Notes under the pieces: generated by a model
What the model was told of the DNA's origin: nothing
Database searches by the model: none
Seen by the model: the letters and a program-made list of their open reading frames with translations, nothing else
Shown: in pieces, positions 35,448 through 37,165 of the stretch
Position numbering within the stretch: position 1 is the stretch's first letter
Layout: every line of letters begins with the position of its first letter
Made by a program: the position numbers and the translations under genes
Source: a virus
Virus genome (UHGV): UHGV-0131723
Length of the DNA: 41,571 bases
Direction: 5' to 3' (one strand)

Positions 35448-35526
35448 GGGAGATTGACGGCAACTTGGTAGACCTATCTCGCTTAGAACGAGATGCTTGA
35501 GGGTTCGAATCCCTTGTCTCCTACCA
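35448..35526 (+). tRNA. tRNA with UAG anticodon (Leu by code), short variable arm
   Basis: Anticodon stem TCTCG/CGAGA, loop CTTAGAA; discriminator A; D region poorly paired. Confidence 0.5.
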
Positions 35527-35533
35527 AATTAAT

Positions 35534-35609
35534 GCAGGTGTAGCAAAATGGTTATGCGGCTGACTCTTAATCAGTAAGACGATGGGTTCAATTCCCTCCA
35601 CCTGTACCA
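35534..35609 (+). tRNA. tRNA-Lys (CUU)
   Basis: Loop CTCTTAA; T-stem only 3 G-C pairs. Confidence 0.55.
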
Positions 35610-35615
35610 GACATT

Positions 35616-35691
35616 GGGGATGTAGTTTACATGGTTAAAACATAAGTTTTGCAAACTTAAGTACAGGGTTCAATTCCCTGCTTCTCCACCA
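35616..35691 (+). tRNA. tRNA-Ala (UGC)
   Basis: Loop TTTGCAA; G3-U70 wobble in acceptor stem (Ala identity element). Confidence 0.75.
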
Positions 35692-35697
35692 ATTAGT

Positions 35698-35772
35698 GCA
35701 TCCATAGTTTAAACGGGAAAATTACAGTCTTCCAAACTGAGGTTGAGGGTTCGATTCCCTCTGGATGCTCCA
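35698..35772 (+). tRNA. tRNA-Gly (UCC)
   Basis: Acceptor GCATCCA/TGGATGC; loop CTTCCAA; T-arm GAGGGTTCGATTCCCTC. Confidence 0.7.
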
Positions 35773-35778
35773 AACAAT

Positions 35779-35855
35779 GCTGCTTTCGTATAATTGGCTA
35801 TTACACATCCCTTGTAAGGATGGAAATGCAGGTTCGAGTCCTGTGAGCAGCACCA
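35779..35855 (+). tRNA. tRNA-Thr (UGU)
   Basis: Anticodon stem CATCC/GGATG, loop CTTGTAA. Confidence 0.7.
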
Positions 35856-35950
35856 ATTCAGAGGCCAAGTGAAAGACCGCTGGTGTCAACTGAAGACCGT
35901 AACAAATTCCACGGAGTTGAGTTAGCGGCACAACTTCAGACCTCTTTCAC

Positions 35951-36025
35951 ACTCGCTTAGTTTATATGGTAAAACATCACCCTTACAAGATGAAGAAAAA
36001 GGTTCAAGTCCTTTAGTGAGTACCA
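35951..36025 (+). tRNA. tRNA-Val (UAC)
   Basis: Loop CTTACAA; T-arm AAAGGTTCAAGTCCTTT; CCA encoded. Confidence 0.6.
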
Positions 36026-36026
36026 T

Positions 36027-36104
36027 GTTCCAGTATCCCAATTGGCAGAGGATGCAAGCTCAAACCTTGTACTAGTGACGGTTCGAATCCGTCTTGGAAC
36101 ACCA
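36027..36104 (+). tRNA. tRNA with CAA anticodon (Leu by code), short variable arm
   Basis: Anticodon stem GCAAG/CTTGT, loop CTCAAAC; discriminator A; 78 nt. Confidence 0.5.
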
Positions 36105-36109
36105 ATTTT

Positions 36110-36185
36110 GCAGGATTAGTTCAAATGGATAGAGCAACAGTCTACGAAGCTGTTAATAGGGGTTCGAATCCCTTATCCTGCGCCA
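36110..36185 (+). tRNA. tRNA-Arg (ACG)
   Basis: D-arm GTTC/GAGC; loop CTACGAA; CCA encoded. Confidence 0.7.
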
Positions 36186-36203
36186 GATAAGCAAGAGGAA
36201 TTT

Positions 36204-36446
36204 ATGCAAACATTAATCGTCGTTGAACATGAAAATCCCAATAGTATTGAGTTTGTAAGGGTTCCCACTATAGATACCCACATTTTCTTGAAAGTCGGAT
36301 GGGAATGCGACCCAATAAAAGTAGAAAGATTTATTGGTCATTGCTTTGGTGGAAGACAACTTAAAAGCATCAATTTTGAGACAATGTTACCAGAAAGCTC
36401 AGAAACAAATAATAATGCTTACCTCCTTACGAGGGTTAGACAATGA
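36204..36446 (+). CDS. Hypothetical protein embedded in tRNA cluster
   Basis: ORF track; AGAGGAA RBS. Confidence 0.5.
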   Translation: MQTLIVVEHENPNSIEFVRVPTIDTHIFLKVGWECDPIKVERFIGHCFGGRQLKSINFETMLPESSETNNNAYLLTRVRQ

Positions 36447-37000
36447 GATACTTAAAATATGTTTCATGGATTTTCTTAGCTTTGTTAGAACCATTTGCAG
36501 CAACCCTAGCAGTCATCTTAGCACCTTTCGTAGTTCCATCCTACAGTGAGAAGAAAGGACACTTACCTTTCGGGTTCAGATGGATGGAGACCTATGACAA
36601 CCCAATTGATGGTGATGAAGGTCACGTTAAAAGATGGGCTAATATTAGATGGATTGGTAAGCTGGGTGTCTACATGCAGAGAGTTGGATGGCTCTGGAGA
36701 AACAAAGCTTATAACTTCTCTTACCATGTATTAGGAAGAGATGTAAAAGATGTTACTAAGTGGAAAGGTAATATCAACGTAAGTTCTGACCCCGAAGATA
36801 ATCAGACAGGTTATCTCCTAATGTGGAACAGTAATGCTTGGGGATTATTCGCTTTTATCCCATCAATTAAAATCTTTGGTAAACAATTTTACTGGAGAAT
36901 TTATATTGGATGGAAACTAAAAAGTGTTGTCCCAGAAGAAAGAGCATTCTCAAGGGAAAGAGTTATGTTGGCATTCTTTATTCATCCACTGAGAAAGTAA
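36443..37000 (+). CDS. Hypothetical membrane protein embedded in tRNA cluster
   Basis: ORF track; N-terminal hydrophobic segment; ATGA overlap with upstream ORF. Confidence 0.5.
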   Translation: MRYLKYVSWIFLALLEPFAATLAVILAPFVVPSYSEKKGHLPFGFRWMETYDNPIDGDEGHVKRWANIRWIGKLGVYMQRVGWLWRNKAYNFSYHVLGRDVKDVTKWKGNINVSSDPEDNQTGYLLMWNSNAWGLFAFIPSIKIFGKQFYWRIYIGWKLKSVVPEERAFSRERVMLAFFIHPLRK

Positions 37001-37008
37001 AGATTTAA

Positions 37009-37084
37009 AGGGGATTAGTTTACAAGGTTAAAACCTCGGTCTTTGAAATCGAAGAAGTTGGTTCAATTCCAACATCCCCCGCCA
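37009..37084 (+). tRNA. tRNA-Gln (UUG)
   Basis: Loop CTTTGAA; T-arm GTTGGTTCAATTCCAAC; 1:72 A-C mismatch. Confidence 0.65.
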
Positions 37085-37086
37085 AT

Positions 37087-37165
37087 GCTCCATTACTCCA
37101 ATTGGCAGAGAGGCCAGACTTAAAATCTGTGTTATGTATCGGTTCGAATCCGATATGGAGTACCA
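37087..37165 (+). tRNA. tRNA with UAA anticodon (Leu by code), short variable arm
   Basis: Loop CTTAAAA; T-arm ATCGGTTCGAATCCGAT; discriminator A; 79 nt. Confidence 0.5.

Follow-up and report, generated by a model that had tools for sequence, protein, structure and literature searches.

Leucine tRNA genes without a long variable arm in the tRNA cluster of a Felix O1-like phage

A recent review describes leucine transfer RNA (tRNALeu) as long-armed in all organisms except animal mitochondria (Giege and Eriani, 2023; PMC9976931), and the bacterial exception has been treated as a Streptomyces rarity that Escherichia coli leucyl-tRNA synthetase (LeuRS) does not charge (Fan et al., 2019, NAR 47:6369; PMC6614811). 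That exception, the type I tRNALeu(CAA) of Streptomyces coelicolor, has the variable loop ACAGC and is leucylated by its own LeuRS; it coexists with type II tRNALeu in a cell with a single LeuRS, and the ability to charge the type I form is decided by the leucine-specific domain of the enzyme (Fan et al., 2019; PMC6614811). Here, we describe three genes with Leu anticodons (UAG, CAA and UAA) and short variable loops in the tRNA cluster of the UHGV virus genome UHGV-0131723, a stretch of 41,571 nucleotides (nt) that is referred to below as the window and that comes from a Felixounavirus (Ounavirinae) of the Felix O1-like myovirus group. The S. coelicolor tRNA is the closest known entity to these phage genes. 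Like them, it carries a Leu anticodon and A73, and a short variable loop (5 nt) stands where the long arm would be; the D-arm motif of its type, GCCCAAUYGGCAGAGGC, was also found on Actinomycetota chromosomes in our genome scan. However, it is encoded on the chromosome of an actinobacterium of high guanine-plus-cytosine (GC) content whose LeuRS has an adapted leucine-specific domain, it has C48, and the S. coelicolor enzyme (ScoLeuRS) does not use A73 as an identity element, whereas the phage tRNAs have U48, two variable loops of 6 and 7 nt, and an enterobacterial LeuRS to deal with.

Other known systems resemble the phage genes in part. Animal mitochondrial tRNALeu(UUR) is also type I, does not need a long arm and bases its identity on A73 and A14 (PMC9976931), but it is organellar, its structure is loose and mismatched, a mitochondrial LeuRS is dedicated to it, and it shows no sequence relationship to the phage genes. 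For E. coli LeuRS, the identity elements are A73, A15:U48, G18G19, A20a and the interactions of the D and T loops; the enzyme needs neither the long arm nor the anticodon, and tRNALeu truncated of both arms is still active (Giege and Eriani, 2023; PMC9976931). According to the account of Larkin et al. (2002) given in that review, engineered minimal E. coli tRNALeu without the anticodon and variable arms is aminoacylated and edited by E. coli LeuRS, and this activity requires an intact A73 and intact D/T-loop interactions; as described there, these constructs differ from the phage genes in being artificial and confined to in vitro work (PMC9976931). Among coliphages, the tRNALeu(UAG) of phage T5 shares a shortened variable region (13 nt) with the genes described here, but it keeps the extra arm and is 85 nt long.

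The three genes in the window lie on the plus strand at 35448-35526 (Leu-UAG, 79 nt), 36027-36104 (Leu-CAA, 78 nt) and 37087-37165 (Leu-UAA, 79 nt). A first-pass annotation made from the letters alone had placed three Leu-anticodon tRNAs of 78-79 nt at exactly these positions, and the ARAGORN calls match it to the nucleotide. The Rfam tRNA covariance model, whose gathering score is 29 bits, gives 30.5, 43.6 and 47.5 bits, respectively, and GenBank relatives annotated with tRNAscan-SE carry the same genes as tRNA-Leu of 77-79 nt. Written field by field, the layouts are GGGAGAU-UG-ACGGCAACUUGGUAGACCU-A-UCUCG-CUUAGAA-CGAGA-UGCUU-GAGGG-UUCGAAU-CCCUU-GUCUCCU-A-CCA for Leu-UAG, GUUCCAG-UA-UCCCAAUUGGCAGAGGA-U-GCAAG-CUCAAAC-CUUGU-ACUAGU-GACGG-UUCGAAU-CCGUC-UUGGAAC-A-CCA for Leu-CAA and GCUCCAU-UA-CUCCAAUUGGCAGAGAG-G-CCAGA-CUUAAAA-UCUGU-GUUAUGU-AUCGG-UUCGAAU-CCGAU-AUGGAGU-A-CCA for Leu-UAA. 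Parsed in this way, the variable loops are UGCUU for Leu-UAG (5 nt), ACUAGU for Leu-CAA (6 nt) and GUUAUGU for Leu-UAA (7 nt). They are short, as the annotation had it, with a range of 5-7 rather than 5-8 nt; no helix is possible in them, and a long arm, taken as more than 10 nt with a helix, is absent. Each variable loop ends in U48. The discriminator A73, which had also been noted at the outset, is present in all three together with an encoded CCA, the T loop is UUCGAAU throughout, and the anticodon loops are of 7 nt with U33 (CUUAGAA for UAG, CUCAAAC for CAA and CUUAAAA for UAA). The D arm of Leu-UAG is 19 nt long and recalls E. coli type II tRNALeu in its G9, G13.A22 and GGUAGA[C], and that of Leu-CAA is Leu-type and 17 nt long; Leu-UAA has a G1.U72 wobble at the end of its acceptor stem.

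No fold with a long arm or a different anticodon, the outcome that would have refuted the first-pass annotation, was produced by ARAGORN, Rfam or RNAalifold. For Leu-UAG, the frame given by Rfam lies one base off and disrupts the acceptor stem, and the ARAGORN frame, with its clean stem of 7 base pairs (bp) and its backing by covariation, was preferred. A 7-bp extended anticodon stem for the same tRNA (25:45 and 26:44), found as the minimum-free-energy fold of the single sequence, was dropped, as it shows no covariation and its pairing fails in phage 24-2-1. Agreement among three independent detectors, together with the covariation described below, thus disposes of the suspicion that the arms had been wrongly assigned and favors the other suggestion made at the time, that these are class I Leu tRNAs: the three genes are canonical cloverleaves without a variable-arm helix.

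The Ser and Tyr tRNAs of the same cluster provide controls, and they do have the long arms that had been ascribed to them. The internal control, tRNA-Tyr(GUA) at 33697-33784 (plus strand), is 88 nt long with a variable region of 15 nt, and tRNA-Ser(UGA) at 35102-35191 and tRNA-Ser(GCU) at 38188-38280 (both plus strand) are 90 and 93 nt long with long variable arms, their variable regions being of 20-21 nt. By the Tyr control, arm loss in the cluster is specific to Leu. As a separate observation on the Ser tRNAs, parsing gives U73 in tRNA-Ser(GCU) (38188-38280, plus strand) as against the G73 typical of E. coli tRNASer; most of the remaining discriminator bases in the cluster obey E. coli rules.

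Within their own subfamily, Leu-CAA and Leu-UAA are almost invariant; Leu-CAA, for instance, is near-identical in phages XTG1 and Sf14 and in one IMG/VR contig, the sole difference being C or U in the variable loop. Distant BLAST matches extend the short form beyond the genus, to three Leu tRNAs in Erwinia phage phiEa21-4 (CAA, 77 nt; AAG, 78 nt; UAA, 77 nt), two in Rhodococcus phage Dorin and one in Avunavirus 24-2-1, and Leu-UAA is 82.7% identical to the 77-nt tRNA-Leu(UAA) of Dorin. Public collections were then scanned with a pattern running from the UAA anticodon loop to the T loop, CTTAAA-N{12,34}-GGTTCRANTCC, in which a 5-nt variable loop leaves a gap of 14 and a long arm one of at least 20, each match being checked by ARAGORN. 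Among the matches listed, 125 distinct type I Leu tRNAs were collected. Their acceptor, D, anticodon and T stems are 91-100% paired at every pair, with 3-6 pair types per stem pair except at the innermost two of the T stem, 52:62 and 53:61, where the pattern itself fixes G:C. All 125 have A73, and U8:A14 is found in 123 of them; at 15:48, 107 have A:U and 7 have switched jointly to G:C, and 13.22 is a conserved C.A in 94 and G.A in 15. RNAalifold run on a MAFFT alignment of the family gives a cloverleaf whose variable region has no helix. Leu-CAA and Leu-UAA carry the signature of this family (A9, C13.A22, GGCAGA) and share the motif NCCCAAUYGGCAGAGGN with its phage and Actinomycetota members. 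They are thus members of a large covarying type I tRNALeu family that is widespread among phages and is also present on Actinomycetota chromosomes.

Leu-UAG has a different background. Across nine Ounavirinae sequences of its lineage, 93.9% of cells are paired and 11 of 20 pairs show compensatory changes; none of 500 shuffles was as good, and slid controls reached at most 61% pairing. The one persistent defect is 11:24, a conserved mismatch (C.C or U.C) in eight of the nine. In a nearest-neighbor test, in which the anticodon and variable loop were masked and the 40 nearest of 1,360 tRNAs of all isotypes were taken, type I Leu tRNAs made up 31-37 of the 40 neighbors of Leu-CAA and Leu-UAA (32-37 for Leu-CAA alone), and the best non-Leu neighbors scored clearly below the best Leu neighbors. 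For the D-arm region of Leu-UAG, 38 of the 40 were Leu tRNAs of both types; over the whole body, the margin of Leu over non-Leu was small (0.47 against 0.43). No single non-Leu isotype recurred among the neighbors of any of the three. The neighbors of Leu-UAG are type II and type I Leu tRNAs alike, which suggests a separate origin for it: it has the look of a type II tRNALeu of the enterobacterial kind, with an arm reduced to 5 nt by a truncation of its own, and there would thus be, as far as sequence relationships can tell, two independent origins of arm loss within one cluster.

The slot occupied by Leu-UAG is mosaic within the genus. Only 6 phage records have the exact 79-nt allele of the window, and relatives of 78 nt occur in about 160; this tRNA is 16.5% divergent in phage KhF2, the nearest relative overall, and XTG1 and Sf14 (L335 and L336, each at 629-705) have in the same slot an unrelated 77-nt tRNA-Leu(UAG) of the family type, GCACCUA-UA-GCCCAACUGGUAGAGGC... 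As for a host source, no copy of Leu-UAA was found in 5,426 complete E. coli genomes.

The short-armed Leu form is present in more than 250 sequenced phages of E. coli, Salmonella and Shigella. Its frequency was estimated from two equal samples of 120 hits obtained with one pattern, one from IMG/VR and one from bacterial and archaeal contigs with one genome per species; proportions rather than absolute counts are compared, and the fractions hold for the subset of genes with CUUAAA and GGUUCRANUCC, as the pattern demands. Among the ARAGORN-confirmed Leu-UAA genes in the matches listed, 23 of 98 viral genes (about 23%) and 12 of 99 cellular genes (about 12%) are type I (Fisher p = 0.04). The initial impression that such tRNAs are unusual is therefore correct relative to cellular bacteria, but not among viruses, where they amount to roughly a quarter of the sampled Leu-UAA genes, and the S. 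coelicolor example has even been characterized biochemically (PMC6614811). Because the viral loci with type I Leu tRNAs mostly have a GC content of 30-50%, their carriers are not simply actinophages. At the viral loci, long arms are kept by 57 of 59 Ser and 28 of 32 Tyr tRNAs. Where viral Leu-UAA genes are armed, their variable regions are of 11-18 nt (modes 13 and 15; IMG/VR loci L124-L213), as against 13-19 nt (modes 15 and 17) in cellular genomes (loci L214-L333), which suggests a general trend to arm reduction in phages.

Among the 12 cellular cases, Actinomycetota account for ten, each a single gene, in Nocardioides, Gordonia, Arcanobacterium, Herbiconiux, Microbacterium, Nonomuraea and Nocardia (genome contigs L241, L319, L228, L327, L222, L225, L257, L271, L286 and L325). 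These tRNALeu(UAA) genes are 74-76 nt long and have nearly the same sequence, GCCCCCG-UA-GCCCAAUYGGCAGAGGC..., with a 5-nt variable loop and A73. At the four loci with recognizable flanks, which belong to several genera, they adjoin ndh or ppx-like housekeeping genes; because of these neighbors, a prophage origin was rejected and the genes are taken to be chromosomal. The type I form thus seems to be much wider in Actinomycetota than has been reported, the published S. coelicolor case being the CAA isoacceptor. The remaining two cellular cases come from metagenome-assembled genomes (MAGs) of Planctomycetota and Acidobacteriota. In the Planctomycetota MAG (L248, 3550-3794), three adjacent type I Leu genes are followed by a Tyr gene of 100 nt, and in the Acidobacteriota MAG (L302, 1921-2411), an array of 30 tRNAs contains four Leu genes (UAA, CAG, CAA and GAG) that are all type I, with armed Ser and Tyr.

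Comparison with the E. coli tRNAs that have the same anticodons, leuZ (UAA), leuX (CAA) and leuW (UAG), shows what the phage genes keep. A73, U8 and the T loop UUCRANU are common to both sets. The D arms of leuZ, leuX and leuW, GUGGAAUCGGUAGACAC, GCGAAAUCGGUAGACGC and GCGAAAUUGGUAGACGC, have the same length of 17 nt as those of phage Leu-CAA and Leu-UAA, UCCCAAUUGGCAGAGGA and CUCCAAUUGGCAGAGAG; A14, A15, G18, G19 and A20a stand at identical positions in them, and all have U48. The Leu-type D arm, with a stem of 3 bp, a non-Watson-Crick 13.22 and the loop AAUYGGYAGA, is kept at every position in Leu-CAA and Leu-UAA apart from the identity of 13.22. The E. coli tRNAs differ in being 85-87 nt long, with helical variable arms of 13-15 nt, and in having G9 and G13.A22 where phage Leu-CAA and Leu-UAA have A9 and C13.A22. 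The set published for E. coli LeuRS, comprising A73, U8:A14, A15:U48, G18G19 with U55C56, A20a and U54:A58, is present in all three phage tRNAs, with the spacing from A14 to G18 in Leu-UAG being one nucleotide longer than in the E. coli set. What the 5-7-nt loops do not have are nucleotides 47f-47i of the large variable region, which contact the C-terminal and leucine-specific domains of LeuRS; these contacts are dispensable according to Giege and Eriani (2023; PMC9976931) and favorable according to Fan et al. (2019; PMC6614811).

A tblastn search with E. coli LeuRS against 50,697 phage records found no LeuRS homologue in any Ounavirinae record, and no aminoacyl-tRNA synthetase was seen among the proteins encoded around the tRNA cluster of the window. 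With no Ounavirinae LeuRS, charging must therefore rely on the host enzyme. In 41 non-overlapping open reading frames (ORFs) of the window (8,597 codons), the Leu codons are UUA (27%), CUU (26%), UUG (14%), CUG (13%), CUA (11%) and CUC (8%). About 50% of the Leu codons in E. coli are CUG, and minor tRNAs serve UUA, UUG and CUA there. The three anticodons fit the usual codon-compensation role, because the usage of the phage is rich in UUA, UUG and CUA and that of E. coli is rich in CUG.

These features make it likely that the three tRNAs are charged with leucine by host LeuRS and are used in decoding, a reading to which we assign a probability of about 0.7 (0.72) and in which the charging step is inferred from sequence. 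Host LeuRS would load the three phage tRNAs through A73 and the elbow that the D and T loops make, with no use of the arm or the anticodon. The charged tRNAs would then read UUA and UUG (anticodon UAA), UUG (CAA), and CUA and CUG, possibly also CUU (UAG), so that the set would serve the Leu codons that dominate in a phage genome of 38.6% GC and that depend on minor tRNAs in E. coli. Since LeuRS alone manages without the arm, the arm would be expendable in Leu and would have to be kept in Ser and Tyr. Its loss may have been neutral streamlining or may have been selected, for example as an escape from arm-cutting nucleases. Several points weigh against leucine charging and decoding. Leu-UAA has a C27.U43 mismatch in its anticodon stem, and Leu-UAG has a weak D stem, mismatched at 11:24 in eight of nine relatives, two extra D-loop nucleotides that displace G18G19 relative to E. 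coli, and an Rfam score that barely passes the threshold. No expression or charging data for Felix O1-like phages were found. Above all, in the in vitro work of Fan et al. (2019; PMC6614811), the type I tRNALeu(CAA) of S. coelicolor was not leucylated at all by the E. coli enzyme. This negative result may not transfer to the phage tRNAs, because the Streptomyces tRNA with C48 would lack A15:U48, whereas the phage tRNAs have U48.

The same in vitro result lends support to a rival explanation, which we regard as quite unlikely, that the genes are expressed while charging by host LeuRS is poor or nil, so that their role would lie mainly outside decoding, for instance as decoys of, or competitors for, host nucleases that target tRNA or modification enzymes, or they would be tolerated passengers of a mobile tRNA cluster. 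The mismatched D stem and marginal score of Leu-UAG also speak for it, as does the free swapping of tRNA slots in the genus, with two unrelated alleles in the Leu-UAG slot. However, Leu-CAA and Leu-UAA keep the E. coli LeuRS recognition set without alteration, the invariance of A73 across the 125 type I tRNAs and the covariation of 15:48 point to a synthetase as the selecting agent, the anticodon stem has compensatory changes that show selection on that arm, and the three anticodons jointly cover the Leu codons that the phage uses most. It has also been supposed, in the initial description of the genes, that they may be charged with something else. A chimeric or anticodon-shifted tRNA bearing a non-Leu amino acid would imply recoding or deliberate mistranslation, and the "tRNA-OTHER" label that the UAG gene carries in a few GenBank records might hint at it. 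Against this, the nearest neighbors in the masked comparison are Leu tRNAs and other isotypes are distant, the D arm is Leu-specific and A73 does not vary; moreover, UUA, UUG and CUA make up about 4% of the codons in the ORFs of the window and are read as Leu by host tRNAs, so that mischarging would damage the proteins of the phage. Non-Leu charging is accordingly extremely improbable.

A further set of explanations concerns the arm rather than the charging. Arm loss may itself be adaptive, the tRNAs being normal Leu decoders that are hidden from tRNA nucleases of host defence or of phage origin, so that decoding persists when host tRNALeu is destroyed. The recurrence of arm loss or shortening in phages, with two apparent origins in one cluster, would agree with this, as would the type I share of the Leu-UAA genes in the matches listed, 23 of 98 in viruses and 12 of 99 in cellular genomes, and the shorter arms of viral type II tRNAs (11-18 against 13-19 nt, and 13 nt for the variable region of T5 Leu-UAG). 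Yet the viral enrichment is just about two-fold, the housekeeping contexts of the Actinomycetota genes indicate that a type I shape needs no defence rationale, and neutral loss of a dispensable arm accounts for the same data; we consider this explanation very unlikely. By analogy, one might go further and suppose that repeated arm loss was selected because armless tRNALeu escapes arm-recognizing nucleases, that the genes are anti-defence tRNAs as well as codon helpers, and that enterobacterial LeuRS charges them efficiently. This bolder combination would parallel Septu and retron-Eco7, which act on tRNATyr; the arm of class II tRNA is a proven immune target in E. coli, and T5 tRNATyr owes its resistance to cleavage by retron-Eco7 to its distinctive variable loop (PMC13096335). 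It is tentative, and we think it unlikely. If it were true, efficient enterobacterial charging would contradict the published claim that E. coli LeuRS charges only type II tRNALeu. A nuclease that targets the arm of bacterial tRNALeu was not found, and we know of none; nor do we know of a link to defence for any tRNALeu.

The phage genes are already annotated as tRNA-Leu in hundreds of records, and the armless shape is common in phages but little described: a full-text literature search found no paper noting armless phage tRNALeu, and the Streptomyces paper alone dealt with type I tRNALeu. That the armless form makes up about a quarter of the sampled viral Leu-UAA genes and is a regular chromosomal tRNA in many Actinomycetota runs contrary to the view of it as a rarity. 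The phage genes offer a natural and easily cloned test of how enterobacterial LeuRS handles type I tRNALeu and of the elements that decide the outcome, such as U48 versus C48 and the spacing in the D loop. They also indicate that, under natural selection, Leu tRNAs can do without the arm whereas Ser and Tyr tRNAs cannot, and they are candidates for compact, possibly nuclease-resistant tRNAs. For annotation, such genes may receive low scores from isotype-specific models and end up as "tRNA-OTHER" or as pseudogenes.

The more unusual object in the window may be another gene of the cluster, a tRNA-Arg(UCU)-like gene without a D arm at 34781-34862 (plus strand, 82 nt), which was missed by ARAGORN and scores 31.7 bits with the Rfam tRNA model. 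Its acceptor stem is of 7 bp, A73 and CCA are present, the T arm is normal and the anticodon arm carries UCU (Arg AGA), but in the place of the D arm there is a 7-nt linker, UAUCUCA, and the variable region is 22 nt long with a 3-bp hairpin. In XTG1, the slot of this gene is occupied by a canonical 77-nt tRNA-Arg(UCU). The D-arm-less gene was found in 263 phage records, mostly unannotated, at 83-90% identity to the window, and it occurs in unrelated groups, including Klebsiella phage Sugarland (Sugarlandvirus), the 381-kilobase E. coli phage WPEC5, Justusliebigvirus and Mydovirus. Across six groups, the linker does not vary and the variable region hardly does, and all 20 proposed pairs are 100% paired, with compensatory changes in 6.

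The cluster that houses these genes extends from 33206 to 38360 (plus strand) and contains 25 tRNAs called by ARAGORN plus at least one tRNA-like gene. With megablast, the region 35000-37500 matched 258 phage records, 210 of them with at least 80% query coverage, nearly all being Felix O1-like myoviruses of E. coli, Salmonella, Shigella and Citrobacter, with KhF2 as the top match (97.8%). The proteins encoded around the cluster include a phosphoribosyl pyrophosphate (PRPP)-synthetase-like protein, nicotinamide phosphoribosyltransferase (NAMPT), a macro-domain protein, an immunoglobulin (Ig)-domain protein, DUF2828/DUF7788, DUF7338 and DUF7217 proteins and a T4-type large terminase. The DUF2828 plus DUF7788 protein, of 471 amino acids, is encoded at 31625-33040 (plus strand), directly upstream of the tRNA cluster. 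The PRPP-synthetase-like, NAMPT and macro-domain genes, at 3598-6794 and 14298-15077 (plus strand), look like a set for nicotinamide adenine dinucleotide (NAD) salvage and ADP-ribose handling. Finally, an element at 35008-35082 (plus strand) matches the Rfam selenocysteine tRNA (tRNA-Sec) model at a sub-threshold 23 bits and has a possible CCA (Trp) anticodon loop; tRNA-Trp is otherwise missing from the tRNA cluster of the window, and the element may be a degenerate or unusual tRNA.

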